DNA of 64,000 nt from Candidatus Sumerlaeota bacterium (GCA_016931035.1 JAFGFN010000026.1:21235-85234); one strand, 5' to 3'; positions 5,777 to 48,229 are shown, counted from the first letter of the stretch. Made by a program: numbers and translations. Notes: generated by a model not told the origin, from the sequence alone.

Positions 5777-5889
5777 CCCCATGTCCGAAGGGTTCCAACT
5801 GGACGGCGTCCGCACAGATTGATACTCTGTCTCCCTGACCGCACCCGTCGCGGGCGCGGGTTTGAGGCACCGCGCGAAGACGATGGAGG

Positions 5890-7746: not shown

Positions 7747-7889
7747 CTCGACGAGTTCAAACTGGACGAAGCGGGCCGGGCTTGGTAGGCTGCGTAGTCC
7801 GCTGTTCGCGTCGCGACGCAACCCGGAGTGCGCCGTTCGTCTCGCTCTCGATCGAACCGCGAAAAGACTCATCCGGCATCGGAAATCGC

Positions 7890-30393: not shown

Positions 30394-30709
30394 AGGAATT
30401 CCCTTCCTCCGCGTGGGCGGCAATGAGGCATGTAGCCCGGGCTGAACACCTGAGTCGAACGTGTTATTCATATCCGAAATGGGCAGAACTGTCAAGATCG
30501 GAGCGATTCTCGGAGTACTTCACCGATTGGAGCCCCAACGGTTCTCTCTTGGCCGGAGCGGCTTTTTCGCGACGAGAACATATCGCCCTGAAGTCACGGA
30601 CGTTGCATCCGGAACGTCACGCGGATCTCTCCAGGATCGAGACGGTCGAACCAAGACGGGATTTCGACGAGCGCCATGGGGGCGACCATGAATCTTCTCG
30701 CTTTCCGCG

Positions 30710-32197
30710 TCAGGGAGCTTCGGGAATGACGGAGTCCTCGAGATGCGGGCGGCCGATCTCGGGCTCGTCCGTGTCCGAGTCTCTCTTCTCCTGGATTTCT
30801 CGCGCTAACGACTTCAGCACCGCGTGCCCCCATCCAAGACCCGCCAGAGCGGAAAGAACGTCCGCCACCACCCGTCCCCAGAAGAGTCCCGGAATCCCAA
30901 ATGCCCAGGCTCCCGCGAGCGACAAAGGCACCAGCAATCCGACGATCCGCAGGACATTGACTCCCGTAGCGTGCAGCGGCTTGCGCACCCCGTTCAGGAA
31001 GAACCCCGTGTAGCGATGGATCTCCATCATCCCATAGCCGATGGGGACGATTCGGAGATACAAGGTCAGAGTGGCGACCACCTCCGCGTCGCGGCTGAAA
31101 AGTTGCGCGATCGGGTGCGCGAGAAGCGCGAAGGCCAGATAAATCGCGCCGCCCCATATGAAGGCGAACGTGTTGCTGAACAGCCGCCCGCGGATCACCC
31201 GGTCGAGGCGTTTCGCACCGTAGTTCTGCCCGACGAACGGAACCAGCGAGATTCCGAGCGCCATCGGCACCATGAAGGCGAACATCTCGACGCGTCCCGC
31301 CGCGCCGCACGCGGCCACCGCCGCCGCGCCGAACCCGGCGACGATGCGCGTGACGATCGCCCCTGCGATCGGCATCAGGAGATTGGTGAGGCAACAGGGA
31401 AGCCCGATATGCAACACCTCGGCCCACGACGCGCGCAGCTCCCGCCACGTGGGCATGAACAGATGCAGGAGACGATGGCGTCGATGGAGGACCCAGAGAA
31501 TCAGGACACCCGAGACGGCGCGCGACACGATCGTGGCGACGGCCGCTCCGCGAATGCCCCAGCGCGGAAAACCCCAGAGGCCGAATATCATGATGGGGTC
31601 TAGGATGACGTTCAGAACCGAGGCGATCACCATGATCAGGCTGGGCGAGACGGTGTCGCCCGTCGCCCTCACGATGTTGTTCATCATCATCGGCAGGACC
31701 ATGAAGACGACACCCAGGTACCAGACGACCATGTACTGGTGGATCAGAGGCAACGTGCGCTCGTTCGCCCCGAGCATCCGAAACACGGGGTCGATGGTCC
31801 ACAGTCCGCCGATCGACATGAGTACGACGATGACAACCGCGAGGACCAGGGTGTGCGTGGTGAGTCGTTGCGCCTGGACTTGATCGTCTCGGCCCAACGC
31901 GTGAGAGACGACCGCCGTGGCGCCCGTCCCCAGACCCATACTGATGCTGGCGATGATCATGACGACCGGAAAGGTGAATGCCATCGCCGCCAGAGGGATC
32001 GTGCCTAGGCGCGAGACGAAATACGTGTCGGCTAGGTTGAACGCCGTCATGGCGAACGTCCCGCCCAGCATCGGCGCCGCCATCCCGACGAGCGTGCGCC
32101 CCACCGGACGCCCGACCAGGCGCGCGGGCAGTCCGCCCTGGCGGCGGTCGTCGCTCTCGCCCGTGCGAGCGGATTCTGTATCGAACGATTGCTTCAA
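30710..32197 (-). CDS. MATE family efflux transporter
   Basis: 495 aa, 12 TM helices, NorM/DinF-like repeated halves. Confidence 0.85.
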   Translation of the reverse strand: MKQSFDTESARTGESDDRRQGGLPARLVGRPVGRTLVGMAAPMLGGTFAMTAFNLADTYFVSRLGTIPLAAMAFTFPVVMIIASISMGLGTGATAVVSHALGRDDQVQAQRLTTHTLVLAVVIVVLMSIGGLWTIDPVFRMLGANERTLPLIHQYMVVWYLGVVFMVLPMMMNNIVRATGDTVSPSLIMVIASVLNVILDPIMIFGLWGFPRWGIRGAAVATIVSRAVSGVLILWVLHRRHRLLHLFMPTWRELRASWAEVLHIGLPCCLTNLLMPIAGAIVTRIVAGFGAAAVAACGAAGRVEMFAFMVPMALGISLVPFVGQNYGAKRLDRVIRGRLFSNTFAFIWGGAIYLAFALLAHPIAQLFSRDAEVVATLTLYLRIVPIGYGMMEIHRYTGFFLNGVRKPLHATGVNVLRIVGLLVPLSLAGAWAFGIPGLFWGRVVADVLSALAGLGWGHAVLKSLAREIQEKRDSDTDEPEIGRPHLEDSVIPEAP

Positions 32198-32275
32198 GAG
32201 ACGACTTCCTCCGATCGCCGCGGAATCTCTGCCACCACATCCGGGTCTCCTAGGATCCGATACGACACGCCTCTT

Positions 32276-33646
32276 TCAGAACACCCGTCCGGCGAGCTCG
32301 AGGAATTCCGTCACGGGCGCTAGAACAGGGAAGCCCTCGCTTCGCGGGATGTGGCCGTTGACGAACATATAGAGCATCGCCTGGTTCCAGAAGACAAACA
32401 TGGCGGAAAGAATAGCCGCCGAGACGAGCCAGACTCTCCGGCGCGGGAGCGCATCGTAGATCGCACCGAGTCCGAGCGCGAACAGAGCCGTGAACGGGAT
32501 GAACTGGCGCGCGCCGAACGAATACCCCATCCACCAGACCGACCACGAGGCGTAAACGTAGTACATGACCACAGCGTGCACCGTCGCGATCCGGAGCGTC
32601 GCGCTCCGGGTTCGCCGCGCCAGGAACCACACCCACCCGCAGAACCCGACGAAGAGAAGGGGCGACCAGTAGAACAATCCGTGGCGGGTCGAGAAGAGGA
32701 CTTGCCAGAGCGCGGGCGAAGTCCAGTTGAAGCGTTCGCCCGGGTTGTTCATCGCGACGTGAAACCAGGTTCCCCACATCGCGCGCCACGCGAGAATTTG
32801 GGGGAAGAATGCAAGGATAAATCCAACACCCACAAAGATATACACGATGGCAATACGGCGAGGCGAACATCCCCCGGCCCCCTCCTTCGAGCCTCCGAAC
32901 AGGACCAGAAGAATCGGAACAAGGACGAAGAGAACGTTCTCGGTGCGGAGCGCGCCGCCGAGTCCGGCCAACGCCCCGAGCGCCACCCAGTGCCACGCCG
33001 TGGCGCATCCGTCCTCGACCCGGAACGCCGCGAGCAAGAGGAGGTTGTAGACCACGAGCGTCGGCAGCGTCGGGCTGCACCAGAAGGCGATCGTTCCGTG
33101 ACTGAGCGGAGAACAGAGGAACGTCACAAACGTCGCGGCGGACGCGGCGGAGTCGCCGACGAAGCGGCTCAGGATGCGCCGCGTCGTCCAGAAGGCCATT
33201 CCGCCAAACACGAACGCCGCCAAAGGCGGCACGAACTGATAGAGGGGCGTGTAGCCGTCCGCCGCCCAGCTCCACAGACCGCCCAACCGCCCGACCGGCG
33301 TCAACACGTGGGCCAACAGGAAGAACGGCGCGATGAGAATCGAATACCCCACTCCATAACGATTGAAGTAAAGACCCGTGTGGGGCGAACGCGGGAGGAA
33401 ATCGCGCGTCTGGAACCCGTGGCGGTTGTAGTTGTGTTCGTAGAATTCGTTCTCGAAATCCAGATCGCCGTCGATCGCGAGCGAACGAACGAAGGCATAG
33501 TACGCCTGACCGTCGGTGCCCGCGATGCCCGCGTAGCGCGGGTTGTCGGAGTCGACCGCGACCATGTACAGCGATTGGGCGACGACAATGGCGAGATAGA
33601 TCGCCAGAGAGCGGCGCAGGAAGAGGTTTGCGATTCGTTCGAGCAT
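32276..33646 (-). CDS. Polytopic membrane protein, possible GT-C-fold glycosyltransferase
   Basis: 456 aa with many TM helices. Adjacent to a GT4 gene with a 4-nt gap. Confidence 0.45.
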   Translation of the reverse strand: MLERIANLFLRRSLAIYLAIVVAQSLYMVAVDSDNPRYAGIAGTDGQAYYAFVRSLAIDGDLDFENEFYEHNYNRHGFQTRDFLPRSPHTGLYFNRYGVGYSILIAPFFLLAHVLTPVGRLGGLWSWAADGYTPLYQFVPPLAAFVFGGMAFWTTRRILSRFVGDSAASAATFVTFLCSPLSHGTIAFWCSPTLPTLVVYNLLLLAAFRVEDGCATAWHWVALGALAGLGGALRTENVLFVLVPILLVLFGGSKEGAGGCSPRRIAIVYIFVGVGFILAFFPQILAWRAMWGTWFHVAMNNPGERFNWTSPALWQVLFSTRHGLFYWSPLLFVGFCGWVWFLARRTRSATLRIATVHAVVMYYVYASWSVWWMGYSFGARQFIPFTALFALGLGAIYDALPRRRVWLVSAAILSAMFVFWNQAMLYMFVNGHIPRSEGFPVLAPVTEFLELAGRVF

Positions 33647-33650
33647 CGTG

Positions 33651-34814
33651 TCAGCGCCGCGCGGCGGCGCGTCGGAGGATGTCCTTCAGGGCCTCGATTC
33701 TCGAAGGCCAGCGAAACTCGGTCGAGGCGTGTTCGCGCCCTTCCGCGCCCATCCTCCGAGCCGACTCGGGGTCGCGCAAGAGACGGAGAATCGCCCGGGC
33801 CACGCACTCCGGATCGCGTCCGTCGACTCGGAGTCCCGTTTGGCCGTCGAGAATCGATTGGCTCGTCCCGCCCGCGTTGCCTCCGACGACGGGCAGACCG
33901 TGCGCCGACGCCTCGGCAAACGCGATCCCGAACCCTTCGGTGTCGCCGGTGCGCTCGATATCGAAGTTGGGCAGAACGTAGCAGTCGCTCTCGGCAAACG
34001 CTCGCAGAAGGCTCTCGCCGTCCACGCGGCCCTCGAGCCGCACGACCTCGCCGAGACCGAGTTGGGCGGCCTGTTTCGCCAAATCCGCCGCCAAAGGCCC
34101 GGTGCCGACAATGCGGTAGCGCAGACTCGGGAATTCCTTGAGAACCGTCGGGAGCGCTTCGAGAACGGTCGCGTGGCCCTTGCGCTCGACGAGCCGTCCC
34201 ACGCTCAGGAGTCGCGGTCCGCGAGCGGGGTCGCTCAAGGGGCACGCGGCATACCGCGGATCGAAATGTTCGTCCGCGACGGCGGGAAGGAGCACCTCGA
34301 TTCTGTCCGCCGGCGCACGGAGAAGATCCGTCAAGCCCGACCGGGCGTTCTCCGACGCGGCGACGACAACCCGCGCCCGGCAACAAACCCGGCGCGCGAG
34401 ACGAGACTGAATTCGCGTGCGCGAGATCGTCGACGGCTCCTCGGCGTGGGTGAACGCGACGAGCGGCTTGCCCAGCATCGCCGCGACAATCGCGACGGGC
34501 GGCCCCGTCGGCACCAACTCTCCCGTCAGTATGACGTCGGGACGGAACCGCCGGGCCGCTCGAAACGTCTGGAGAAGAAGGTTCGCTCCGAGCGGAACGA
34601 ATTGGAGTCTCAGCGGCCGGAGCCACTCGGCGCGTTCGATCCGGCAGCGCCGGATCTTGTAGGGTTGAGCGGAGTCGAACTCGCGCCAACCCGGGATGCG
34701 GCGGGTCAGGACGAGCGTCTCGAAGCCGTCGAGGCGGCTCAAGAGGTTGTGGTAGTAAACGCGCGACCCGCCGAGGTGAGGAAGATAGTTGTCGGTGACG
34801 AGAAGAATTCGCAT
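33651..34814 (-). CDS. Glycosyltransferase family 4
   Basis: Starts MRILLVTDNY and has the GT4 EX7E region (TEGFGIAFAEASAHGLPVVGG). ATG at 34814. Confidence 0.8.
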   Translation of the reverse strand: MRILLVTDNYLPHLGGSRVYYHNLLSRLDGFETLVLTRRIPGWREFDSAQPYKIRRCRIERAEWLRPLRLQFVPLGANLLLQTFRAARRFRPDVILTGELVPTGPPVAIVAAMLGKPLVAFTHAEEPSTISRTRIQSRLARRVCCRARVVVAASENARSGLTDLLRAPADRIEVLLPAVADEHFDPRYAACPLSDPARGPRLLSVGRLVERKGHATVLEALPTVLKEFPSLRYRIVGTGPLAADLAKQAAQLGLGEVVRLEGRVDGESLLRAFAESDCYVLPNFDIERTGDTEGFGIAFAEASAHGLPVVGGNAGGTSQSILDGQTGLRVDGRDPECVARAILRLLRDPESARRMGAEGREHASTEFRWPSRIEALKDILRRAAARR

Positions 34815-35016
34815 GAGGGCGAAAAACGACCGGCGAGAGAGATCGCGCATCCGGGGAGATCGAGCCCCGCCTCGGGTTCGACCGACATCATAGGTCCATT
34901 CCTCGCGTCCCGTCAAACGGCATATCCACACGGCTCTCCTGGGAATCTTGGGGAAGAACCCGGACACGCGCGCTCGAAAAGGGAGGAGGCTCCTTCTCCG
35001 CGGGGATTTCTTGGGC

Positions 35017-35112
35017 TGTCGTTGACTCCGGCCAACTGAAGTTGGAACAACAAACGAAGAATCGGAATCGGTCAGGCCCGTCTGTTTGTCGTTCCAGCTT
35101 CAGCTGGCCAAC
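35017..35112. repeat. 96-bp palindromic repeat element, copy A (REP/MITE-like)
   Basis: Begins tgtcgttgactccggccaactgaagttggaacaacaaacgaaga, has a central loop, and its right arm is the near reverse complement of the left. The first 44 nt are identical to copy B apart from 2 SNPs. Confidence 0.8.
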
Positions 35113-35787
35113 GGCTCCCTCGTTCCCCGGAAATCCCCAAAGGCCCCCCCACGCTTCCGGAGGGTGAGCGGCGCAGAACGGGCGGCATGTTCCGTTCGCC
35201 TTCCTCTGTGCACGCCAAAGGCGTGCCAGCCTCCGGCCTGGGGTTGGCGCGGCGCGGCCGAGCGCAGCGAAGCCGCGCAACGCGGCTACCCCAGGAACAC
35301 GCGACCCCATTTTCGTTCTTCAACCCGGAACGGGTTGTGGCCTATTGGCCCATTGCGCCACAACCCCGTTGGGGTTGTCTGAATTGGGACGTACGTGACC
35401 CAAGGTAGCGCCTGCCCGGCTCCGCTCCGCTTCGCCGTGCCGGGCGGCGCAACCTTGGGCTGTAGGCTGCGGCCCCGTTGGGGCCGAAAAGAAGAACGGG
35501 CCGAAGAAGTCCAATCCGACGCGTTGTATGGACGTTGTCGTTTGTGCAGCACAGACCGACCCCGAGAGTCCGCAGACTTCGCCGCTTCCCCCATCCCCGT
35601 CGTACACGCACTTCCGGAACCGCAGGAGAATCGGGTTGTGTCGCGCACTCGGGCGGTGATACGATCTCTGCCAGTGTCCAGAGACCCTTCTTCTTCCCGT
35701 CTTTCCGGACACAGACCGCTCGTTCGGACGGACCGAGCGCGCGCATCGCGACGGCCGTCGGACCGACACATCTAGAGAGAAGAAACG

Positions 35788-36927
35788 ATGAAAGTACCCC
35801 TGCTGGATCTGAAAGCGCAGCTGGCGCCGATCGAACGCGAGATCAAGGAGGCCGTCCTCGAGGTCGTGGATTCGACCCGCTACATCATGGGGCCTAAGGT
35901 CGAGGAGTTGGAAACGCGGATCGCCGAGTACGTCGGCGCGGCCCGGGCCGTCGGCGTCTCGTCGGGCACCGACGCCCTCCTAGTCTCCCTGATGGCGCTC
36001 GGCGTCGGCTCGGGCGACATTGTGGTGACGACGCCCTATTCGTTTTTCGCCACGGCGGGCGTCGTTGCGCGTCTCGGCGCGACCGCCGCGTTCGTGGATA
36101 TCGATCCCGACACTTACAACATCTCCCCCGCCGCGCTCGAAGAATGGTTCGAACGCGAGACAACCCGCGTCGGCCAAGTCAAGGCCATCGTTCCGGTGCA
36201 TCTCTACGGCCAGTGCGCCGACATGGACCCGATTCTCGAAATCGCGCGACGCTACGGCGTCCCGGTGGTCGAGGATGCGGCCCAGGCCATCGGGGCGACC
36301 TATCCGTCGAAGTCGGGCGTCAAGAAAGCCGGCGCGATGGGAACCGTCGGGTGCTTCTCGTTCTTCCCGAGCAAGAACCTCGGTTGCCTCGGGGACGGCG
36401 GCATGGTAGCGACCGACGACGCGGCCCTCGCCGACAAGATCGTCCTTCTGCGAAACCACGGGGCCCAACCGAAGTACTACCATTCGCTCGTCGGCGGGAA
36501 TTTCCGGCTCGACGCGATACAGGCCGCCGTCCTTCTGGTCAAGTTGCCGCATCTCGATACCTGGCACGCCGGACGCCGCGCCAACGCCGCGTACTACGAC
36601 CGGCATCTGAACGTTCCCGGCCTCAAGAAGCCCCACGTCGCCTACGGACCCGACTCGCACATCTATAATCAGTACGTCCTGGCGGTCCCCGACGACCGTC
36701 GCGACGCCCTTCGCAAACACCTCGACGCGAACGCCGTCGGCAACGAGGTCTACTATCCCGTCCCGTTCCACGAACAGCAATGCTTCGCCCACCTGGGCTA
36801 CAAGACGGGCGATTTCCCGCACAGCGAGCGCGCGGCGCGCCGCACCATCGCCCTGCCGATCTACGCCGAACTGACCGATGGGATGAAGGATTACGTTATC
36901 GAGAAGATCGAGGCATTCTATGAGTAA
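35788..36927 (+). CDS. DegT/DnrJ/EryC1/StrS family PLP-dependent sugar aminotransferase
   Basis: Starts MKVPLLDL. Contains the PLP-lysine region [10 protein letters not shown]. Confidence 0.85.
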
Positions 36928-38548
36928 GAAAGTCTGCGTCGTCGGGGCCGGACGCTGGGGACGCAACCACATCCAGACGTTGCACACGATGGACTGCCTC
37001 GGGGGCATCGTCGAGGCGAACGACGAGACCCTCGCGCGTCTCGCCCAGTCCTACCCCGAGGCCAAGACCTTCCCGAACGTCCGCGACGCCGTGCGCGAGG
37101 AGTTCGACGGATTCACCGTCGCCACGCCCGCCGCGACGCATTTCGAGATCGCGTCGTTCCTTCTGCGCGACAAGAAACACGTCCTGGTCGAGAAGCCGAT
37201 CGCGCTAAAAGCGTCGGAGGCGAGAGAACTCGACGCCCTGGCCCGGCGGCAGGGCGTCCAGCTGATGGTCGGCCACGTTCTCCTCTTCCATCCCGCCATC
37301 GCCAAGATCAAGGAACTCGTCGACGCCGGCAAGATCGGCAAACTCGAGTATCTTTACAGCAATCGCCTCAACCTCGGCGCGGTGCGAACGGAAGAGAACA
37401 TCCTCTGGAGTTTCGCCCCGCACGACATCTCGATCTTCCAACACCTCATCGGGGCGATGCCGACGCAGGTGACCTCGCGCGGCGGAGCCTTTCTCCAGCC
37501 CCACATCCACGACACCACGATGACGGTCCTCTCCTACCCCGACAACGTGGTCGGACACATCTTCGTCAGCTGGCTCCACCCGTTCAAGGAACACCGCCTC
37601 GTCGCCATCGGTTCCAAAGGGATGCTCTCGTTCGACGATTCGAGCGAGAGTAAGGATCTTCTCTTTCACGAAAAGGGGATCGACTGGGTCCAAGGCGAAC
37701 CGGTCAAGCGCGACGGCGCGACCGAGGCGATCCCCTACGACCGGACTCTCCCTCTGACCAACGAGCTGACCTACTTCGTGGACTGCCTGGGCGGCAACCC
37801 CGTCGAACTCGCGGACGGACGCAGCGCCGTCGAGGTCCTCGAAATCCTCGAACAAGCCACCGTGAGTCTCCTCGCCGGGTCGCCCGTCGCGCCTCAACCT
37901 TCGAAGGACTACTTCGTTCACAAGAGCGCCTACGTGGACGAAGGCGCCGAGGTGGGCGCGGGAACGAAGATCTGGCATTTCTCTCACGTCATGAAGGGCG
38001 CCCGGATCGGCGAGCGCTGCATTCTCGGCCAGAACTGCAACGTGGACGGGGGCGCGCTCATCGGCAACAACGTCAAGGTCCAAAACAACGTGTCGATCTA
38101 CGCCGGGGCCGTCATCGAAGACGATGTCTTCCTCGGACCGTCGTGCGTTCTGACCAACGTCACGAACCCGCGCTCCCAAGTCGTACGGCATTCGCTCTAC
38201 GAGAAGACGACGATCCGGCGCGGCGCGTCGATCGGGGCGAACGCCACCATCGTTTGCGGCGTGGAGATCGGACGCTACGCCTTCATCGCCGCCGGCGCCG
38301 TCGTTGCGAAGAACGTCCCCGACTATGCGTTGATGGTCGGGGTCCCGGCGCGGCAAACGGGATGGATGAGCCGCCACGGGCTGCCGCTCCAGAATCCCGA
38401 CGCCGAAGGCGTGATGACCTGTCCCGAGAGCGGGTATCGCTACAAAGAAGCGGTCCCGGGCGTCCTGCGATGTCTCGATCTGGACGAAGAAGCTCCTCTG
38501 CCCGAGGACTTGGCGATAGGGAAACGCCCCTACGACAGTTTCAAGTAG
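36920..38548 (+). CDS. Bifunctional Gfo/Idh/MocA-type sugar-nucleotide dehydrogenase / hexapeptide-repeat N-acetyltransferase fusion
   Basis: Residues 1-330 carry the Rossmann motif [11 protein letters not shown] and an oxidoreductase C-terminal domain. Residues 340-542 carry left-handed beta-helix hexapeptide repeats ([49 protein letters not shown]). Confidence 0.8.
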
Positions 38549-38615
38549 AGCGCCCGCGGTCGCGGCAGGCCGAAGCCTGAACGTTGAACGTCGTCTCGGA
38601 AGGACTCGCGAGCGG

Positions 38616-40511
38616 ATGGCGAGGAATTCGCGACACAGGAAGGAGACGGAGCTCGATTCCCGACTCGGGAATCGGGTCGAGTCGAGACATTTCGCCCACA
38701 TTTGGTGGCTCCTGATTCTTCTCGGAGTCTTCGTCCAAGTCTCCGACGTTCTTTCGAGCAATTACCTCCCCAAAACAGTGTGGAGCGCCGTCTTTCTCGC
38801 CCTTGCGTTTCTGTTCACGCGGCGCGGATCGGATCGCCCGTTCGGTCTCACCCCGCTGGGCGCGATCTGGCTCGCTTTCGGGCTCTGGGGACTCGCTTCG
38901 GCAATCTGGGCGCCCAGTCCCCGCGTGACGGTCGAGCGATGGATCGCCCTGTTCTTCTTCCCCTCGATGGCCTATCTCGTCGCGCAACGCACTCGTTTCT
39001 GGGAATCGGAAACGTTCTGGACGGCCTATTGCGTTCTCTTCTCGGTCGTCTGCCTTATCGGATGTCTGCAGTTCATCCTCCCGATCGAGTGTCTCAAGCC
39101 GTGGTTCCCGAAGCAGGACTTCCTTGGGTGGATCGAGAGCACCGGTCTCCCCTCTTCGACACTCGGCAACCGAAACTACGCGGGCGAATACCTCGCCGCG
39201 ACGTTTCCTCTCGTCCTGTGGCGTTTCCTCAAGGCCGACGGCCGGGCGATGGTTGTCCCGTTCGTCGCGCTTGGGCTCGGCGCGGCGTTCCTTCTCTTCA
39301 CCCGGACGCGAAGCGCGTGGCTGGCCCTCGCCCTCGCCTTCGCGCTGATCGCCGCCTTCGGAGGCGCGCGGAGAGCGCTTCGCCGCAAACGCAGTCTCCC
39401 GATCCTGGTCGCGACGGCGTGCGTGGTTCTCGCGGCGGGCCTCGTCGTGCGCCCCTCGTCGCGCGTCAAGACGCAGGGTCGCGGCGACGGCTACGGCGGG
39501 ATGCCGGTCTATAAGGACACCCTTCTCCAGTCCTTCCGGTCCACCCTTTCCGATCTCAAAACGAACAAACGCCTGGCGATGTGGCGGCTCGCCTTGAGCG
39601 TCGGGACGAACCCTCTCCTCGGCTGTGGATGGGGAAACTACCCGATCGTCGCGACGCCGTACAACCCCGAAGACAAGATCTTCACGCTCAATTACGAGAT
39701 TCACAGCGACGTTCTTCAGTGCTACGTCGATCTGGGGGTCGTCGGACTCGGAATCGTCCTGGCCTTCGCCGTCCATCTCGCAACCCTCGTCTACAGGCAA
39801 CGCCAAGACGAAAGCCTGATTCTCGCGTCGGGCGCCGCCGTCTTTGCGCTCACGCTCATGCTGTCCGTCACGTTCCTTTCGGAAAAGGTATCGACCCAGA
39901 TTTGGACTGCGGGTATAATCGCCGTCATCAACGACCGGAACGCCCGCCATCCCTGGAAGCGGTTCGACCTGAACCGTTGGGCGCGGGGCGCTCTCCGTTT
40001 CACGGCAGTGGTCGGACTCGCCGCGCTTGCGGTCGCCGCGGGCATGACGGTATGGGGCGATTTCCAGTTCTGGAAGGAGACCGTACGAAACCCTCGGATC
40101 GGCCTGAGTCCGGACTACGACCGTTTGGCGCGTGACGTGCTACCCTGGATGCAGTTCGAGCCGAACGTGATTCACATTCTGACAAACCAGACGTCGAGCA
40201 CGGCGCTTCGCGCGGGGCGTCTCGACGCCACCGAGACGTTCGCCCGCAAAGCCGTGTCGCTTCACTCCAACGATGCCGTCGCGTTGGGCAATCTGGTCGC
40301 CGTCGCGCTCAAGAGGTCGGATTTGGAAACGGCGGCGCGATACCTCGAAGAAATCGTGCGCCTGGGACCGCGATTCGCGACCTTCGACGTTTGGAGGATG
40401 CTGGCGAACTGCTACGCCCGCCTAGGCAAGGAAGACCGGGCGAAGGAATGTCTCGACAAGGCGCTTTCGCTCTTGGCGAGGGACCGCCCCGCCGCGGGGC
40501 GGGCGCCATAA
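38616..40511 (+). CDS. O-antigen ligase (Wzy_C/WaaL) family membrane protein with C-terminal TPR repeats
   Basis: Wzy_C hallmarks (SAWLALALAF and LLGCGWGNY). The roughly 150-aa C-terminus is TPR-like. Confidence 0.65.
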   Translation: MARNSRHRKETELDSRLGNRVESRHFAHIWWLLILLGVFVQVSDVLSSNYLPKTVWSAVFLALAFLFTRRGSDRPFGLTPLGAIWLAFGLWGLASAIWAPSPRVTVERWIALFFFPSMAYLVAQRTRFWESETFWTAYCVLFSVVCLIGCLQFILPIECLKPWFPKQDFLGWIESTGLPSSTLGNRNYAGEYLAATFPLVLWRFLKADGRAMVVPFVALGLGAAFLLFTRTRSAWLALALAFALIAAFGGARRALRRKRSLPILVATACVVLAAGLVVRPSSRVKTQGRGDGYGGMPVYKDTLLQSFRSTLSDLKTNKRLAMWRLALSVGTNPLLGCGWGNYPIVATPYNPEDKIFTLNYEIHSDVLQCYVDLGVVGLGIVLAFAVHLATLVYRQRQDESLILASGAAVFALTLMLSVTFLSEKVSTQIWTAGIIAVINDRNARHPWKRFDLNRWARGALRFTAVVGLAALAVAAGMTVWGDFQFWKETVRNPRIGLSPDYDRLARDVLPWMQFEPNVIHILTNQTSSTALRAGRLDATETFARKAVSLHSNDAVALGNLVAVALKRSDLETAARYLEEIVRLGPRFATFDVWRMLANCYARLGKEDRAKECLDKALSLLARDRPAAGRAP

Positions 40512-40678
40512 GAGGCAGGCTGAAGCCTGTACCGAGAAAGGCTCGCGGTCTGCCCCACCGGAGTAAACGGACCATTGCCGCGGTATGGGAAATTCAAGTC
40601 GGCCTGCTTCAGCAGGCTCCCCGTTTGCCCCGTGCTTTAGCGCGGGGTAAGCGAGACAAAAAGACCAAGGGCGGGCGC

Positions 40679-40704
40679 GTTTCCTGCCGCTTCTCGCAGG
40701 AAAC
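40679..40704. terminator. Hairpin gtttcctgc-cgcttctc-gcaggaaac (perfect 9-bp stem) in the ligase-to-PGT intergenic region
   Basis: Perfect inverted repeat with no T-tract. One of four hairpins between 40514 and 40704. Confidence 0.3.
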
Positions 40705-40750
40705 GTGACAGCCGACATTACTCCCGGGGCGGTACACTAGGGCAACAGGC

Positions 40751-42712
40751 TTGCGACTCATGATTCGCGCTTTCGACATCGCTTTCTCCCTCGTCGCGCT
40801 CGTGCTGCTCGCTCCGCTTGCGCTCTTGATCGCCTTATTGATCAAGATCGATTCGAGCGGCCCCGTCCTCTTTCTCCAAAAACGCGTCGGGCGCGGCGGC
40901 GTTCCGTTCACGATGTTCAAGTTCCGCAAGATGCGCGAGGGGCTCGCCAACCAAGGGCCCGCCGTCACGTCGCGCTACGACAGCCGCCTCACCGTCGTCG
41001 GACGCTGGCTCGAACGAACGAAGCTCGACGAGCTCCCCCAACTCCTCAACGTCCTCAAGGGCGACATGGCCGTCGTTGGCCCTCGACCCGAACTCGAGGA
41101 GTTCACGCGCTTCTATCCCGAGAAATGGAAGGACGTCCTTTCCGTCCGGCCCGGCTTGATCGGCCCCAGCCAGGTCCTCCATCGCAACGAGTCCGAGCTC
41201 TATCCGCCCGACTGTCGCGACCGCGAGGATTTCTACGTCCGCCGTATCCTGCCCGACAAACTCGATTGCGACATCCGGTACATCGAGAACGCTTCGCTTC
41301 TCTACAACCTCACCATCCTGATGCGAGCGCTCTTTCGCACGCTAATCGGGACGATCACACGCGATTCGACGATCTCGACGGCCCGGAGCCTCTATCTGCT
41401 CGTCTCCTATACGCTAGTCTCCATCCTGAGTCTCTACGCCGCCTACCGGCTCCGGTATCCGGACGCCATGCCGGTGACCGACGCGCGGATCTTCAGACTC
41501 AGCTTCCCCATTCCGATCGTTGTGTATCCGCTCGTGTTCCTGTCGCTGCGCGTCCATCGCCGCATGTTCGGGAGCCTGACGCTCGAAGACGTGACGGCGT
41601 TCTTCAAGAGCTGCGTCGTCGGGTCGTTCCTGATGATCCTGGTCCTTCTGATCCTCGACGCCCGGGAGTTCTCGAGACTGGTCTACAGCATCGACTTCGT
41701 TTTCCGTTTTCTCGGCCTGACGCTCCTGGCCTACGTCGAGTATCAATACACTCAAAAACGCAAGCTCCTGACCGGCCGCGACATCGTCCGAGCGGTCGTC
41801 TTCGAGGCGGTCGCCGTCGCCTTTTTGGTCCTGTGCTCGATTCTTCTCATCGCCTTCGCCGTCCCTCGCCCGTCCGAAGCCGCCGCCGACTTCGCGCGAA
41901 CGATCTGGGCCGTCGCCGCGCTCGCCGTCGCCGCGCCGCTCATCTACATGGCGACCTTCCAGGAAGTCCCAAGACGACTCGTCTACTATCTCAAGGTCAA
42001 GATGAAGCAAACCGCCATCATGCTCGCCCAAGGCGCGTTGTTCCTCGTGGTCGTCTCGCTCCTCCTCGACGTGCGCGACTACTCGCGCCCCGCCGTCCTC
42101 CTCTCGATCGTCGTCCTGACCGCGTCGCTCATGGCGTTCTTCGTTCTCACTTGGTGGTTGCGCTGGCGCTCGCTTCCCGAGGTCCGGCGCGACCGCGTGC
42201 TCCTGATCGGTCTCGCGCCCGACCTCGACCTGTTCATCACCGCGCTGCAACGCAGCCACGTCGACTACTCGATCGTCGGCATCATCAGCGACGAGACACG
42301 GGATCGGTTCTATACCGTCTCGAAGATCGAGATTCTGGGGACGCTCAACGAGCTCGAAGACGTCCTCAACGTATACCGCGTGGATACGTTCGTCGTCTCG
42401 TCCGAACGCCTCGGCCCCCACGAGATGGCCTGGGTGCGGCAAATCGCCCGCGCGCACAACGTCGCGGTCCGATACATCACCGGGGTCGATCGGTTCATGC
42501 GGCTGGATGCGGAGCGAGAGGAATCCGCACTGGAACGGTCGGCAGTGGAAGAAATCGCGAAGCCTTCACTCCCCGTCACCCCTCCCGCGGAAAAAGCGGA
42601 AGCGGCAAACGGCGAAAGGAAACGGAAGCGTTCATCTCGTTCGCGCCGCGCCGCCGCGTCTCGACCGAAGGAACCGCCACGCGCCGCAGAGACTTCCGAA
42701 TCCGTAGGATAG
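40751..42712 (+). CDS. Polyprenyl-phosphate sugar phosphotransferase (Bac_transf/WbaP catalytic domain) with permuted domain order
   Basis: The N-terminal 200 aa form the complete sugar-transferase catalytic domain (KRVGRGGVPFTMFKFRKM ... DELPQLLNVLKGDMAVVGPRPE). They are followed by a multi-TM segment, a Rossmann-like CoA_binding_3-like region (VLLIGLAPD...VDTFVV) and a basic low-complexity tail. Confidence 0.75.
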   Translation: MRLMIRAFDIAFSLVALVLLAPLALLIALLIKIDSSGPVLFLQKRVGRGGVPFTMFKFRKMREGLANQGPAVTSRYDSRLTVVGRWLERTKLDELPQLLNVLKGDMAVVGPRPELEEFTRFYPEKWKDVLSVRPGLIGPSQVLHRNESELYPPDCRDREDFYVRRILPDKLDCDIRYIENASLLYNLTILMRALFRTLIGTITRDSTISTARSLYLLVSYTLVSILSLYAAYRLRYPDAMPVTDARIFRLSFPIPIVVYPLVFLSLRVHRRMFGSLTLEDVTAFFKSCVVGSFLMILVLLILDAREFSRLVYSIDFVFRFLGLTLLAYVEYQYTQKRKLLTGRDIVRAVVFEAVAVAFLVLCSILLIAFAVPRPSEAAADFARTIWAVAALAVAAPLIYMATFQEVPRRLVYYLKVKMKQTAIMLAQGALFLVVVSLLLDVRDYSRPAVLLSIVVLTASLMAFFVLTWWLRWRSLPEVRRDRVLLIGLAPDLDLFITALQRSHVDYSIVGIISDETRDRFYTVSKIEILGTLNELEDVLNVYRVDTFVVSSERLGPHEMAWVRQIARAHNVAVRYITGVDRFMRLDAEREESALERSAVEEIAKPSLPVTPPAEKAEAANGERKRKRSSRSRRAAASRPKEPPRAAETSESVG

Positions 42713-43732
42713 ATGGAAGATCGGGAAGACGACCGGAAGCGCGACCAGCAGCACCCACCCGTTCCTGGCCGCCGCCTGAATAGACGCCCCCAGAACGCAC
42801 GCGAGATACACCGCCACGCCCGCCGCGAGACACCGCGCGAAAAGGACGTGAACGAACGCCAACGGGATCCCGACAAGAAGCGCGCAGACGAACGCCAGCG
42901 GGACCCAGTGCCGGATCGACGCCGCTCGACCGTGCTTCTGCATCACGCGAATCTTCCAGAACCCGTACTCGAAGTACTGCCGCCAGAGCGACCGAAACGA
43001 ACCGCGCGCCACGTACCACGACCGAATCGCGGGCGATTGCCAAATCTTCTTGTGCGCCCGCGTCAGGCGCAGGTTCATCTCGTCGTCCTGATTTCGCATC
43101 AACTCCTCGTCGAACCAACCGACTTCGTTGAAAAGCGCGTTGCGCCAACACCCGAGATAGACCGTATCGACCCGCCCTTCGTAATCGAGATCGCGACACC
43201 GAGCCCCGCCGACGGCGAACGGATGTTGGAACGCCGCGGCGATGGCGCGCGACAGAACCGACTCGCCGGCTTCAGCGCGCCAGGGTCCGCCGACGTTGTC
43301 GGCCTTCGTCTCGCGCAGGGTCTCGACGCACCGCGCCACGTAGTCGTCGGCGATCCGCGTGTGGGCGTCGACCCGGATGACGATCTCTCCCCGCGCCCGT
43401 TGAATCCCTTCGTTCAATGCCGTCGAGACGATGCGCCGTGGATTGGCGATCAACCGGACCCGCGGATCGCGCCGCGCGATTTCCGCGACGATCTTGTCGG
43501 TCCCGTCGTCGCTTATCCCGTCGCACACGAGGACCTCGAACCCGCCCGGCACGTCCTTCTGAGCCAGAATCGACTCGAGACACGCGCGGATCATGTCGCT
43601 TTCGTTCCGCACCGGAACGACGACGGATACGACCGGTGAGACTTGAGGAGACGAGGGGTCGGGGTTCATACGCTTCGAATCGGCTTGTTGGCGTTTGGCG
43701 AATATGCGATAGTCCGGTAGCGCTTCGGACAT
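42632..43732 (-). CDS. Glycosyltransferase family 2 with C-terminal TM helices
   Basis: GT2 core (VVSVVVPVRNE...DGISDDGT...VDAH). An alternative start is at 43669. Confidence 0.75.
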   Translation of the reverse strand: MSEALPDYRIFAKRQQADSKRMNPDPSSPQVSPVVSVVVPVRNESDMIRACLESILAQKDVPGGFEVLVCDGISDDGTDKIVAEIARRDPRVRLIANPRRIVSTALNEGIQRARGEIVIRVDAHTRIADDYVARCVETLRETKADNVGGPWRAEAGESVLSRAIAAAFQHPFAVGGARCRDLDYEGRVDTVYLGCWRNALFNEVGWFDEELMRNQDDEMNLRLTRAHKKIWQSPAIRSWYVARGSFRSLWRQYFEYGFWKIRVMQKHGRAASIRHWVPLAFVCALLVGIPLAFVHVLFARCLAAGVAVYLACVLGASIQAAARNGWVLLVALPVVFPIFHLSYGFGSLCGAWRFLRSRRGGAARTR

Positions 43733-43790
43733 ATCTCAGAAGAAGTGTAACGCAAAGCCGCCAAGGCGCAAAGAGAAGAAAGCGACAAGG

Positions 43791-44915
43791 GTGACGAAAG
43801 TGAAGATTCTCACCGTCGTCGGCGCGCGGCCCCAATTCATCAAGGCCGCCATGGTGAGCCGCGCCGTCGCCCGACACAACGCCGCCGCCCTCCCCACGGC
43901 CCCACCCGTAGTCGAGGAAATCGTCCACACGGGTCAGCACTACGATCACGGAATGAGCCAGGCCTTCTTCGACGAGATGGAGATCCCCGGTCCCGCCGTC
44001 AATCTCGGCGTCGGGTCGGGCACCCACGGCGAGACAACCGCCGCCATGCTCCGCGGCCTCGAGGCCGAGATCGTCGCGCGCCGTCCCGACTGGGTCCTCG
44101 TCTACGGCGACACGAATTCGACTCTCGCCGGCGCGCTGGCCGCCGCGAAACTCCACGTCCCCGTCGCGCACGTCGAGGCCGGGCTGCGTTCCTTCAACAA
44201 ACGAATGCCCGAGGAGATCAACCGTCTCGTCGCCGACCACGTCTCGACCCTTCTCTTCTGCCCCACCCGCGCGGCGGTCGAGAACCTCGCGAGCGAGGGG
44301 ATCGCCGACGGAGTTCACGCGGTGGGCGACGTGATGTACGACGCCGCGCTCGCCTTCGGAGACCTCGCCCGCCAACACAGCGACGTTCTCGATCGCCTCG
44401 GTCTCGCGCCGAAGGGCTACGCCCTCGCCACCTGTCACCGCGCCGAAAACACCGATAGCGGCGAACGCCTCGCCGCCATTCTCGACGGCCTGGGCCGCGT
44501 CGCCGAGTCCGTGCCGGTCGTTTTGCCGCTCCACCCTCGCACGCGCGAGCGGATCGAACGATTCGGGTTCGCGAAACGCGCCGAGCGTCTCCGCACCGTC
44601 GAGCCCGTCTCGTTTCTCGACATGATCCGGCTCGAGCAGGAGGCGCGCGCGATCCTCACGGACTCCGGCGGCGTTCAGAAGGAGGCCTACTTCCACGGCG
44701 TGCCGTGCGTCACGTTGCGCGACGAGACCGAATGGGTCGAGACTGTCGAGGCCGGATGGAACACCCTGGCGGGCGCCGACGCCGACGCGATCGCCCAGGC
44801 CGCGCGCGACGCCTCCCCCGGCCGCCCGATCGCCGACTACGGCGACGGCCACGCGGCGGACAAGATCCTCTCAATCCTTCTCTGCCCTTCCTCAAACCCC
44901 GAGGAAGAAACCTGA
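43791..44915 (+). CDS. wecB: UDP-N-acetylglucosamine 2-epimerase (non-hydrolysing)
   Basis: Contains the WecB motifs (VGARPQFIKAA and HVEAGLRS). GTG start at 43791 or 43800. Confidence 0.85.
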   Translation: MTKVKILTVVGARPQFIKAAMVSRAVARHNAAALPTAPPVVEEIVHTGQHYDHGMSQAFFDEMEIPGPAVNLGVGSGTHGETTAAMLRGLEAEIVARRPDWVLVYGDTNSTLAGALAAAKLHVPVAHVEAGLRSFNKRMPEEINRLVADHVSTLLFCPTRAAVENLASEGIADGVHAVGDVMYDAALAFGDLARQHSDVLDRLGLAPKGYALATCHRAENTDSGERLAAILDGLGRVAESVPVVLPLHPRTRERIERFGFAKRAERLRTVEPVSFLDMIRLEQEARAILTDSGGVQKEAYFHGVPCVTLRDETEWVETVEAGWNTLAGADADAIAQAARDASPGRPIADYGDGHAADKILSILLCPSSNPEEET

Positions 44916-44966
44916 GGCTTTTCCTGAATGCGGAGAATACCTCTTGCCGACGCCGATCTCTCGAGT

Positions 44967-45062
44967 TGTCGTTGACTCTGGCCAACTGAAGTTGGAACAA
45001 CAAACAAAGAACCCACACGGGCTACGCTTGTCCGTTTGTTGTCCCAACTTCAGTTGGCCAAC
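44967..45062. repeat. 96-bp palindromic repeat element, copy B
   Basis: Same 5' 44 nt as copy A (2 SNPs). Right arm ccgtttgttgtcccaacttcagttggcc is the near-perfect reverse complement of the left arm. Same orientation as copy A. Confidence 0.8.
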
Positions 45063-45101
45063 ACATCCGTCATTCCCGAGAATCCCGGAAGTGTCTTCAT
45101 C

Positions 45102-47012
45102 TCAAACGAACGGTCTACGGTTGTCGAGGAACTGGCGGCAGAAGCTGTTGAGGCAGAGGAAACCCCAGATCTTGCGGCCGAAACTCGGCTCGCTCGGAAG
45201 ACCCCGCCGGATCGCGTCGAAATCGAGAAACTCCCGCGCCGCCTGCGAGGGTTCGCCGAACGCCTTCTCGACGAACTCCTTGAGCGCGTCGCCGTACCAT
45301 TGCACCAGCGGGACCGGGAATCCCATCTTGTCCTTGCGCCCGAGGACGCTCGCGGGCAGGGTGTCGCCGAAGAAGAGTTTGGGCAGACGCTTGAGCTCGC
45401 CCCCCCTGAACTTCACGTTCGCCGGGATCGTCGCCACGAACTCGACCAGCGGATGGTCGAGGAACGGGGTGCGCGACTCGACGCCGTGCGCCATGCTCGT
45501 CCGGTCCTCCACTTGGAGCAGCGCGGGCAGGAGCGTGAGGAAGTCGAAGTGGAGCATGCTGTCGAAGTAGCATCGGCTCCCGATCTCGTTGGAGAAATAC
45601 ACGCGGCGAAACTCTTCGTACACGTCGTAGTCGCGCGGGAAAGCGTCCCACCGCACTTCGTCGCGCACCTCGGCGCTGCGGTCGATCAGGCGGAAGTAAC
45701 GGCGGTCGTAGTCGTCGAACATCCCGGCGCTGAAGAAGTGGCGCATCAGAGGCTCGTATCCGGCGAGCGACTGGAGATTCGGGATGATCGACTCATAGGT
45801 GACGATGAAACGCGGCGAATGGCTCTCGCCCGCCACCGCGCCTTTGAGGCACTGCTCGAAGTAAGCGATCAGGTATCGAACGTACCCGCCGAAGATTTCG
45901 TCCGCGCCCTGTCCCCCTAGGACGACCTTGCGTTTCCCTTTCACGTACTTCGAGACGACGTACTGAGGGAACGAGCCGGGCCCGGCGACCGGGAAGTCCA
46001 TGTGATAGATCAGGCGGTCGAACGCATCGACGAAGTCGTCGCTCGACACCGGGATCTCGCGCAGGTCGATCCCTTCGCGTCGCGCGACGTCGCGCGCGAA
46101 CCCGCTTTCGTCGAACCGTTCGCCGTATCCGCGAAAGACGCCGTGGAACGCCATGAAATCGTCGGCGCCCGTCGCGCGTCGGGCCAGGGCGGCGATGCCG
46201 CTCGAATCGATGCCGCCGCTCAGATAGCCGCTCACGGGAACGTCGCTCACGACGTGCGCGCGGATCGAGTCCTCCATGAGCTCGCGGCATCGCTCGACGA
46301 ACCACGCCTCGCCGTGCTCCATGTCGAGGTCGTACCGTACCTTCCAGTAGGTGTGTGACCGCGTCCCCTCGGAATCGACCGTCCGCCACGTAGCGGGCGC
46401 GACCTCCTCGATGTTCTCGAACAGGGTCTTGCCGCGCAGGCAGAACTGGAAGGTCAGATAATCGCGCAGTCCCGAGCGGTCGATCCGCACGTCGGGAAGG
46501 AACGAAAAGAGCGCCTTGATCTCGGAGGCGAAATAGAGCGTCTCGCCCGACCAGGCGACGTACAACGGCTTGATCCCGAAACGATCGCGCGCGAGGAAGA
46601 GCCGTCGGCGGCGGGCGTCCCAGATCGCGAAGGCGAACATCCCGCGCAGGTACTCGGGACAGGCCTCGCCCCACTCCATATAGGCCTTGAGGATCACCTC
46701 GGTGTCGGACTGCGTCCGAAAGCGGTGCTTGGATTCGAGGCGGGCGCGCAGCTCGCGAAAGTTGTAGATCTCGCCGTTGAAGACGATAGTGAGGTCGGCC
46801 TCGTCTTCGCGCATCGGTTGGCGCGCGCGTTCCGAGAGATCGAGAACGCTGAGCCGAACGTGGCCCATCCCGAGGGCGGCGTCGGGCGCGAGCCAGAGAC
46901 CTTCGTCGTCGGGTCCGCGGTGCTTCTGCAGGGCGTTCATCCGCTCGAGGCGTTCGCCCAGCCGGTCGATCGCCCCGCCTGACGGATTGAAGATTCCCGC
47001 GATCCCGCACAT
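45102..47012 (-). CDS. asnB: Asparagine synthetase B-type glutamine amidotransferase
   Basis: N-terminal MCGIAG nucleophile and the PP-loop SGGIDSS. Confidence 0.85.
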   Translation of the reverse strand: MCGIAGIFNPSGGAIDRLGERLERMNALQKHRGPDDEGLWLAPDAALGMGHVRLSVLDLSERARQPMREDEADLTIVFNGEIYNFRELRARLESKHRFRTQSDTEVILKAYMEWGEACPEYLRGMFAFAIWDARRRRLFLARDRFGIKPLYVAWSGETLYFASEIKALFSFLPDVRIDRSGLRDYLTFQFCLRGKTLFENIEEVAPATWRTVDSEGTRSHTYWKVRYDLDMEHGEAWFVERCRELMEDSIRAHVVSDVPVSGYLSGGIDSSGIAALARRATGADDFMAFHGVFRGYGERFDESGFARDVARREGIDLREIPVSSDDFVDAFDRLIYHMDFPVAGPGSFPQYVVSKYVKGKRKVVLGGQGADEIFGGYVRYLIAYFEQCLKGAVAGESHSPRFIVTYESIIPNLQSLAGYEPLMRHFFSAGMFDDYDRRYFRLIDRSAEVRDEVRWDAFPRDYDVYEEFRRVYFSNEIGSRCYFDSMLHFDFLTLLPALLQVEDRTSMAHGVESRTPFLDHPLVEFVATIPANVKFRGGELKRLPKLFFGDTLPASVLGRKDKMGFPVPLVQWYGDALKEFVEKAFGEPSQAAREFLDFDAIRRGLPSEPSFGRKIWGFLCLNSFCRQFLDNRRPFV

Positions 47013-47014
47013 GG

Positions 47015-48229
47015 CTAGACCCCCAATCGTTCATACCACCGAATCAGATTCGCCGCCTGCGTTTTCCACGAATATCGCTCGCGGGCCCGGTCGAACGATT
47101 CGGGCCGGAACTCGCCGCGGTCGAGCCGCGCGAGGAACGCGTCGAGCGCCGCGGCGATCTCGCGCTCCGACCCCATAGGATACACGTCGCCGATTTCGCC
47201 TTCGCGCACGATCCGGCGCAGCTCGGGCAGGTCGCTCGCGCACACCGCGACGCCCGCCTCGATGAACTCGAAGAGCTTGTTCGGCGTGCAATACAGACTG
47301 TTGAGCATCCCGCTCTCGCGATAGGGGATCACTCCCGCGTCGGCCGCCGCGACAAACGCCATCATGCGCCGGTGCGACGTCCAGGCGCCGAAATGGACGT
47401 TCGAGATTCTCTTGCGGCGACAGAGAGACCGCAAGCGCTCTTTCTCCGTCCCCTCGCCCAGGAAGAAGAGACTCGCCCGTCCCTCGAGATGCCGGAAGGC
47501 GAGCGTCAGGTTCCTCAGGTTCCGATCGGCCGACAGGTTCCCCTGAAAGACGATCTTTCGCCCCGCCGAGGAGGGCGAGCCGAAATGCTTCGCGAAATCC
47601 CCGTTACCCGCGGGTGCCGGACACGGCTCGGCGCAGCTGTTGTAAAGAATCTCGGGAATCGCCGTCCCGTACAAGCCCGCCATCGCCTCGGCGATGGATT
47701 GGTTAACGGCGATGGCGAGATTCACTTCGGATAGACACGCGCGTTCGATCCGCGTCCAATAACGCTGAAAGAACGGATTGATCGTCTGGAAGGGGAAGAA
47801 CTCGTGCGCGTCGTAAATGAGCCGGGCGCGCGGACACTGTCTCTTGCGGACCTCGATCCCCGCGGGCAGGGTTTTCAGGTCGTGACAGTGGATCGCGTCG
47901 AACGTCTCGCCCGCCGGGACGTTGCGCAGAAAGTAAGCCGTGTTGTGAGGCGAAGGGCCGCTCCCGAACAGATACCACAAGCTCTGCGCGAGACCGTAGA
48001 GTCCCGAGGGGAGGCGTCGCGCAACGCGACGCGCGGACGAAGAACTCTCGAACTCGCCACCCGACTCGACCACCGCCCGCACGCGCGGGTCGAGTCCCTC
48101 GGCCTCGATGCGGGTGGGGACGGAAACGAGCGTCGCATCGCGCCCCGATTCGACCAAAGCGTTCGTCTCGCCGACGATTCGCCGGTCGAGCTGCGTTCCG
48201 TGGGCGGAGAGTACGAGGATTCGCGACAT
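47015..48229 (-). CDS. Glycosyltransferase family 4
   Basis: 404 aa with a GT-B C-terminal domain. 2-nt gap to asnB. Confidence 0.75.
   Translation of the reverse strand: MSRILVLSAHGTQLDRRIVGETNALVESGRDATLVSVPTRIEAEGLDPRVRAVVESGGEFESSSSARRVARRLPSGLYGLAQSLWYLFGSGPSPHNTAYFLRNVPAGETFDAIHCHDLKTLPAGIEVRKRQCPRARLIYDAHEFFPFQTINPFFQRYWTRIERACLSEVNLAIAVNQSIAEAMAGLYGTAIPEILYNSCAEPCPAPAGNGDFAKHFGSPSSAGRKIVFQGNLSADRNLRNLTLAFRHLEGRASLFFLGEGTEKERLRSLCRRKRISNVHFGAWTSHRRMMAFVAAADAGVIPYRESGMLNSLYCTPNKLFEFIEAGVAVCASDLPELRRIVREGEIGDVYPMGSEREIAAALDAFLARLDRGEFRPESFDRARERYSWKTQAANLIRWYERLGV

Follow-up and report, generated by a model that had tools for sequence, protein, structure and literature searches.

Repetitive extragenic palindromic (REP) elements and the domesticated transposases associated with them are known mainly from Proteobacteria. 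REP elements and their paired form, REPIN (REP doublet forming hairpin), were reportedly treated together with the REP-associated tyrosine transposases (RAYTs) by Bertels and Rainey in 2011. Di Nocera et al. 2013 (PMC3733652) described REP dimers arranged head-to-head (HH), tail-to-tail (TT) or head-to-tail (HT), occurring as homodimers or as heterodimers whose two stems differ, with variable spacers in TT dimers, and the arrangement in which REP units stand beside a RAYT gene, known as REP-RAYT or the "REPtron", is described by Quentin et al. 2018 (PMC6006769). The window considered here is a 64-kb stretch of a Candidatus Sumerlaeota metagenome-assembled genome (MAG) in which two palindromic copies of a hairpin element, A and B, lie on either side of a 10-kb block of glycan genes and can be compared with each other. 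These copies are best read as members of a small selfish hairpin repeat (REP element) population residing in gaps between genes, and they probably represent two TT dimers of the REP type that were put in place by a mechanism resembling that of RAYTs.

The two copies consist of the following features, with coordinates counted from the first letter of the window:

34982..35132, plus strand, copy A in its full similarity to copy B, a REP-like dimer with short conserved flanks (repeat finder; nhmmer, E = 1.4e-49; alignment)
35030..35055, plus strand, left unit of copy A, GGCCAACTGAAGTTGGAACAACAAAC, which holds CCAAC-TGAA-GTTGG (arm search)
35056..35083, no strand, spacer of copy A, 28 nt, about half identical to the spacer of copy B (alignment)
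35084..35109, minus strand, right unit of copy A, reverse complement GGCCAGCTGAAGCTGGAACGACAAAC, with the palindrome changed to CCAGC/GCTGG (arm search)
44932..45082, plus strand, copy B in its full similarity to copy A (repeat finder; alignment; nhmmer)
44980..45005, plus strand, left unit of copy B, identical to the left unit of copy A (arm search)
45006..45033, no strand, spacer of copy B, 28 nt, with a small GC hairpin and then a T-rich inner tail on either strand
45034..45059, minus strand, right unit of copy B, with one mismatch against the left unit (arm search)

The core hairpins occupy 35017-35112 in copy A and 44967-45062 in copy B, in the same orientation, which is where an earlier note on this DNA had placed two palindromic copies. 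The 96-bp extent given in that note holds for the core, but similarity also reaches approximately 35 nt to its left and 20 nt to its right, so that the repeat finder reports a direct repeat of 151 nt (34982-35132 / 44932-45082, family D3) with an ungapped identity of 74%, rising to 82% in a gapped alignment. The longest perfect run common to both copies, established by alignment and sequence inspection, is 26 nt. Each copy is composed of two inverted copies of the 26-nt unit GGCCARCTGAAGYTGGRACRACAAAC placed around a divergent 28-nt spacer, with the CAAAC ends facing inward (tail-to-tail), and internal inverted arms are likewise reported by the repeat finder (e.g., 44979-45005 / 45034-45060, 96% complementary). 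A search with the 26-nt arm GGCCAACTGAAGTTGGAACAACAAAC at up to 3 mismatches returned four matches, at 35030 (+), 35084 (-), 44980 (+) and 45034 (-), and 0 of 100 shuffles gave any match. The unit itself measures about 26-33 nt and comprises a 5-bp stem, CCARC/GYTGG, that closes a TGAA loop and is followed by the conserved tail AAC-RA-CAAAC.

The right arm of copy A is informative about which part of this structure is conserved. The changes that had been described there as compensatory or wobble prove to be three substitutions relative to the complement of its own left arm, so that the long hairpin acquires one G-T wobble and a pair of A-C mismatches; within the arm's own small palindrome, by contrast, two of the three compensate each other, and CCAAC/GTTGG has become CCAGC-TTCA-GCTGG. 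The left units carry the small palindrome CCAAC-TGAA-GTTGG as first described. Because this arm keeps its own small hairpin while mismatching the long one, the sequence points to selection acting on the unit, as the conserved entity, rather than on the 96-nt palindrome. A dimeric transcription factor site was rejected, since the small palindrome changes its sequence among units yet stays self-complementary. Thermodynamic folding, which had been proposed as a check, yields long hairpins for both copies: as RNA, on either strand, they reach -51 to -58 kcal/mol (z -5.3 to -7.5), and as DNA approximately -32 to -33 kcal/mol (z -3.8 and -5.9).

One explanation for such a pair is a local duplication that belongs to no wider family: a single hairpin, for instance a terminator, would have given rise to a second copy in the same locus, after which the two drifted. 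In keeping with this, no third copy was found in the 64-kb window by an nhmmer profile built from copies A and B, the dimer has no other instance in any collection searched, and similarity extends slightly past the hairpin, to 151 nt. Plain drift after duplication, however, would not leave the arms far better conserved than the spacer: the left arms of the two copies are identical at 42 of 44 positions and the spacers are about half identical, as the earlier note had also remarked of its near-identical 44-nt left arms and divergent loops, and this difference argues against a recent plain duplication. The relatives of the unit outside the window, described below, bear on the same question.

Miniature inverted-repeat transposable elements (MITEs) and other long palindromic repeats, such as the enterobacterial repetitive intergenic consensus (ERIC, 127 nt) and the Correia elements of Neisseria, provide a second point of comparison. 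They resemble copies A and B in being approximately 100-150 nt long, intergenic and non-coding, with imperfect terminal inverted symmetry. The two copies differ in having no visible target-site duplication, sequence inspection having shown none at their ends, whether these are set at 96 nt or at 151 nt, or at the ends of the metagenomic family members, and in owing their symmetry to two REP-type units rather than to the transposase-binding terminal repeats of a DDE element. A MITE was rejected for want of a target-site duplication at either copy. Of the MITE/REP-like family once suggested for this element, the REP side is thus upheld by a dispersed hairpin family beside RAYT-type Y1 genes, and the MITE side is not. 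Other candidates were set aside as well: a CRISPR, as there is no tandem array, and, by inspection, a sigma-54 promoter reading of TGGCC-N-TTGG, as its spacing is two bases off the consensus. Rfam 15 returned no match at the gathering score in the window, nor in 20 family loci apart from tRNAs; the only other match is a mir-971 artefact at 25.9 bits, under the gathering score of 53.

The unit belongs to a hairpin family that is dispersed in metagenomes. A 19-mer taken from it retrieved 111 contigs from JGI metagenomes, roughly half of which are coding matches to the peptide GQLKLE, and about 45 of the 111 carry hairpin dimers of the form GTTYNGAGTT-CCNNC-TTYA-GNNGG-CC, a 10-45-nt spacer and GGCC-ARC-TGAA-GYTGG-AACTCNRAAC (family consensus GGCCARCTGAAGYTGGAACTC). 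Units of the family match the window unit at 19 of 19 nt and also over the 7 nt that adjoin the search key (C-AAAC), with the best units reaching 24 of 26 nt. Their left arms, on which the search pattern placed no constraint, are self-complementary in a variety of sequences, including CCACC/GGTGG, CCTGC/GCAGG, CCCGC/GCGGG, CAAGC/GCTTG and CCGAC/GTCGG. Over 63 units, pairing holds in 98.7% of the cells of the 5-bp stem, and in 40 cells both sides have changed, a level that none of 500 shuffles attained and that collapsed in slid controls. Family members are intergenic and occupy many distinct loci, often 0-15 nt after a stop codon; they adjoin unrelated genes rather than glycan loci, and a particular heterodimer subtype is found again and again at separate loci.

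The subtype found in the window also exists outside it, given that two singlet units carrying CGTTGGCCAACTGAAGTTGGAACAACGAAC occur on a contig from another organism (L104), each within an 84-nt composite repeat. On that contig, the repeat is present as two direct copies (L104:655-738 and 929-1012) that are 92% identical and 274 nt apart, combining the singlet unit with a conserved segment, GCCACGCTGGAGGTGGGCGAAGCGCC, and the gap that holds the repeat is flanked by two open reading frames (ORFs), one bearing a TIR-like motif and the other similar to the N-terminus of DnaX, as judged from sequence motifs only. A hairpin duplicated within a single locus would account neither for the 24-of-26 match, with the same covarying stem, to an outside RAYT-associated family, nor for the presence of the same subtype in another organism, and local duplication is an unlikely origin for copies A and B.

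The metagenomic family is associated with transposases of the RAYT type. The sequence of E. coli TnpA-REP, confirmed as PDB 4ER8, served as a query and matches ORFs on contigs L071 and L015, both of which are Y1_Tnp (PF01797). These IS200-like Y1 ORFs have 472 homologues of approximately 200 aa, mostly on one contig each, and those with a named host come from Pyrinomonadaceae/Acidobacteriota. The transposases of the family are 200-aa Y1 proteins with the HUH motif NHYH. Units were found within 50 nt of a Y1 transposase gene in all four independent loci examined:

L117:9968-10667 (from a 3.37-Mb contig), one unit on either side of the Y1 gene, tails outward
L114:9960-10760, a unit upstream of the Y1 gene and a full dimer downstream, with the stem CCGCC/GGCGG
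L015:600-1296, one unit upstream and one downstream of the Y1 gene, on the same strand
L071:987-2020, unit pairs on both sides of the Y1 gene

The flanking units have the form GTTYGGAGTT-CCNNC-TTYA-GNNGG, and their stems differ between genomes (CCAGC, CCACC, CCGCC, CCATC). As the units flank Y1 transposase genes in all four loci, the arrangement corresponds to REP-RAYT. No publication containing the exact sequence strings of the family was found, and with nothing in this exact-string literature search or in Rfam, it appears to be an undescribed REP-RAYT family of soil Pyrinomonadaceae (Acidobacteriota).

Compared with the described REP, BIME (bacterial interspersed mosaic element) and REPIN systems and their RAYTs (PMC6006769, PDB 4ER8), the elements considered here share a short imperfect palindromic unit in extragenic DNA, inverted pairs of that unit around a spacer that are able to form one long hairpin, a stem kept by compensatory change, and related units that directly flank single Y1/HUH genes in the four metagenomic loci. 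The GTAG and CGTC REP superfamilies (PMC3733652) show the same dimer organization, with the window dimers corresponding to TT (tails inside) and the metagenomic family to HH (tails outside), as well as heterodimers with different stems and variable TT spacers. The extension next to the stem differs, being GTTYGGAGTT in the family and GTTTGTTGT or GTTTGTCGT in the window.

Several observations weigh against assigning copies A and B to this kind of system. The unit bears neither a GTAG nor a CGTC tag and belongs to neither tagged superfamily. No RAYT occurs anywhere in the 64-kb window, in which two dimers are seen, and these are the only two visible, both within 64 kb of the source genome. The named hosts of the family's transposases are Acidobacteriota rather than Sumerlaeota, so that the link crosses phyla. 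The topology is also opposite: the window dimers have their tails inside, whereas dimers that flank or mimic the RAYT loci have them outside, and a tally of unit pairs separated by less than 150 nt gives 45 with tails outside, 5 in tandem and 2 with tails inside, these 2 being copy A of the window and a junction on L095, with the right arm of copy B falling just under the match threshold. No tail-to-tail dimer of the window type was present among the 111 JGI metagenome matches, and neither a scan of IMG/VR viral contigs nor a blastn against plasmids gave a match. When a collection holding one genome for each GTDB species, the source MAG not among them, was scanned with a 22-mer, it returned a single chance half-match, in a Kofleriaceae MAG; this 22-mer held the window-specific RACRAC tail, which made it too specific, and it missed the AACTCC-tailed family. 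Finally, the link to the family rests on a search key drawn from the window itself. A search of a protein database for spurious ORFs called across other copies, using a profile made from the element's translation (GQLKLEQQT...NFSWP), yielded 3 candidates, 0 of which scored.

From the same organism, a 4.3-kb Logan contig (assembled from run SRR13394437) stops partway through copy B's left arm, its last letters being ...GGCCAACTGAAGTTG (L002:4290-4315, equivalent to window positions ~44969-44994). Assemblies built on k-mer graphs often break at repeats, and the break inside copy B is weakly suggestive of more copies in that sample.

The genes around the two copies, as identified by a Pfam scan, are arranged as follows:

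33651..34967, minus strand, family 4 glycosyltransferase (GT4), transcribed away from copy A
35788-36927, plus strand, DegT
36920-38548, plus strand, GFO/IDH/MocA-hexapeptide fusion
38616-40511, plus strand, Wzy_C-TPR
40751-42712, plus strand, Bac_transf protein with a C-terminal CoA_binding_3 domain, a phosphoglycosyltransferase (PGT)
42632-43732, minus strand, family 2 glycosyltransferase (GT2)
43791-44915, plus strand, wecB
45102..47012, minus strand, AsnB-like asparagine synthase, which converges on wecB with copy B in between
47015-48229, minus strand, second GT4

Both copies sit between these Pfam-supported genes and are extragenic, as the earlier note had held. The assignment to a Candidatus Sumerlaeota MAG comes from WecB, which is 100% identical to the protein P0001. 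The gap around copy A, at 820-973 nt the largest of the window, is a divergent one, from which GT4 is transcribed leftward and DegT rightward. The likely true start of GT4 is MRILLVTD at ~34814, with a promoter-like site at 34916-34887; copy A is upstream of this site and 676 nt upstream of DegT, a placement that does not suit a terminator. The gap that contains copy B measures 186 nt and is convergent, with wecB transcribed rightward and asnB leftward. The approximately 675 nt between copy A and DegT (35113-35787) contain no ORF with a Pfam match and no Rfam match, and together with copy A they make up an unusually long intergenic region for a gene-dense window.

In the favored reading, two units facing each other across the 28-nt variable spacer would let the DNA or a transcript fold either into a single long hairpin or into a pair of small hairpins. 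The unit would be recognized as a single-stranded DNA hairpin by a single-copy Y1/HUH transposase (RAYT), which would nick and rejoin units and thereby scatter units and dimers into intergenic gaps, where they would be tolerated. Copies A and B would then be independent members of a REP population and not the borders of a mobile cassette, and they would occupy two strand-switch points of the polysaccharide locus, one in a divergent and one in a convergent gap, because those gaps are the largest tolerant ones. Along with this mechanism of transposition, we infer a cognate RAYT and further copies in this Sumerlaeota genome.

The position of copy B raises a different explanation, in which both copies are RNA structures selected by the host, namely a two-way terminator for wecB and asnB and an insulator or leader upstream of the DegT operon, with mobility being irrelevant. 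The hairpins are indeed predicted to be highly stable whichever strand is folded, copy B separates two convergent genes, the tail-to-tail layout places a small spacer hairpin before the T-rich run GTTTGTTGT on either strand, and many family members directly follow stop codons. Copy A, however, is downstream of no gene; the terminator-like sites formed by small spacer hairpins number 3 against a shuffle expectation of 0.9 +/- 1.1 and are not above it; the full hairpin has no following U-tract; Rfam offers no family apart from the below-threshold microRNA artefact; and in a syntenic relative (contig L122) wecB is followed by another small hairpin, unlike this one. An intrinsic (Rho-independent) terminator was rejected for three of these reasons: the absence of a T-run after the full hairpin, the number of small spacer hairpins, which does not exceed the shuffle expectation, and the location of copy A, which is not downstream of a gene. 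As an account of origin, host-selected RNA structure is rather unlikely; as co-option, it can stand alongside the REP reading and need not compete with it. By analogy with the REPs of E. coli, a secondary role of the copies at the RNA level is plausible, and for copy B it might consist in forming an RNA 3'-end hairpin that serves both wecB and asnB transcripts.

The earlier note had further supposed that the two direct repeats might mediate excision or exchange of the intervening genes, a claim for which no support was found. In this reading, the copies are cassette borders, direct quasi-palindromic repeats that serve as substrates for homologous, site-specific or RAYT-type recombination to excise, invert or swap the 10-kb block. 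It draws on the location of the copies exactly at strand switches (minus to 34967, mostly plus over 35788-44915, minus from 45102), on the direct and inverted homology that palindromic elements provide (I1: 81 nt, 78% complementary), and on L122, which differs in the order of its sugar-modification genes and in its upstream neighbor, so that the region has been rearranged in evolution. The same relative, whose WecB is 72% identical, nevertheless carries GFO, Hexapep, DegT, Wzy-TPR, PGT, GT2 (minus strand) and wecB, and thus both the Wzy-PGT-GT2-wecB block and the GFO/Hexapep/DegT genes, next to an ABC transporter as its upstream neighbor, with no unit in the gap upstream of the glycan genes or in the 148 nt of contig left after wecB. 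The GC content of the cassette equals that of its flanks and the GC skew does not change at its borders, so that neither measure hints at a foreign origin or a recent inversion of the cassette. Copies that are 74-82% identical with a longest perfect run of 26 nt also speak against this reading, as does the scattering of the related family beside unrelated genes, and a scan of ORFs from 30.6 to 49.4 kb turned up neither a recombinase nor a transposase. Since the window contains 12-15 gaps of at least 100 nt, two insertions that happen to bracket some block of genes are unremarkable. Cassette exchange by the repeat pair is possible in principle but unsupported, and a role of the copies as cassette borders is very improbable. 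An integron attC site was likewise rejected by inspection: the order 5'-RYYYAAC...GTTRRRY-3' is absent, the "cassette" holds six genes and no integrase is seen.

A bolder form of this idea combines portable borders with horizontal transfer: the REP dimer pair would delimit the 10-kb glycan module, which a RAYT-type enzyme or homologous recombination could excise, invert or swap, and the unit would have reached Sumerlaeota through cross-phylum transfer of a REP-RAYT system, a kind of system otherwise regarded as vertically inherited. This combination is highly improbable; if true, it would constitute a REP-driven route to surface-glycan variation.

The glycan genes themselves show several features of their own. 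GT2, which had been assumed to lie on the plus strand, is encoded on the minus strand at 42632-43732, and the plus-strand ORF opposite to it (42713-43639) has no Pfam match. This GT2 gene shares approximately 80 nt with the PGT gene at the latter's end and runs opposite to its neighbors, being likewise inverted in L122. In the PGT (40751-42712), Bac_transf is N-terminal (residues 6-197) and CoA_binding_3 is C-terminal (429-546), and the same order is listed for L122:6946-8721; this is presumably the reverse of the usual domain order. The GFO/IDH/MocA dehydrogenase and the hexapeptide acetyltransferase form a single ORF of 542 aa in the window and two separate genes in L122 (L122:2010-3698), and the position of DegT relative to them differs between the two. 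Beside the first GT4, two long minus-strand ORFs in 30594-33646 (548/495 aa and 456 aa) have no Pfam match at E <= 0.001 and may encode membrane proteins of the same polysaccharide locus.

Elsewhere in the window, degenerate half-sites of the element had been proposed after the stop codons at 5776 and 7746, but they are unrelated to the element, the nhmmer profile not having detected them as its relatives. The 14-mer GTTCNAACTGGACG is found there at 5792-5805 and 7755-7768, 16 and 9 nt after the stops of two consecutive plus-strand ORFs (4058-5776 and 5890-7746); the two 14-mers resemble each other and are marginally non-random, with 2 of 100 shuffles reaching the same count. A separate set of repeats lies inside a 1307-aa ORF (51037-54960), which probably encodes a protein with a repeated domain: three tandem 105-nt (35-codon) repeats at 52661-52975 and a fourth copy 315 nt further on, at 53186-53290, with 60-74% identity.

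Copies A and B are probably a further case of an already known REP kind, and nothing found shows that the glycan genes have been moved by them. For annotation, the copies should be marked as repeat elements and not as evidence of a mobile glycan cassette. For the REP-RAYT family, their significance lies in the presence of a nearly identical unit in a Candidatus Sumerlaeota genome, which, if sharing across phyla holds, would bear on the strict vertical inheritance of REP-RAYT systems.

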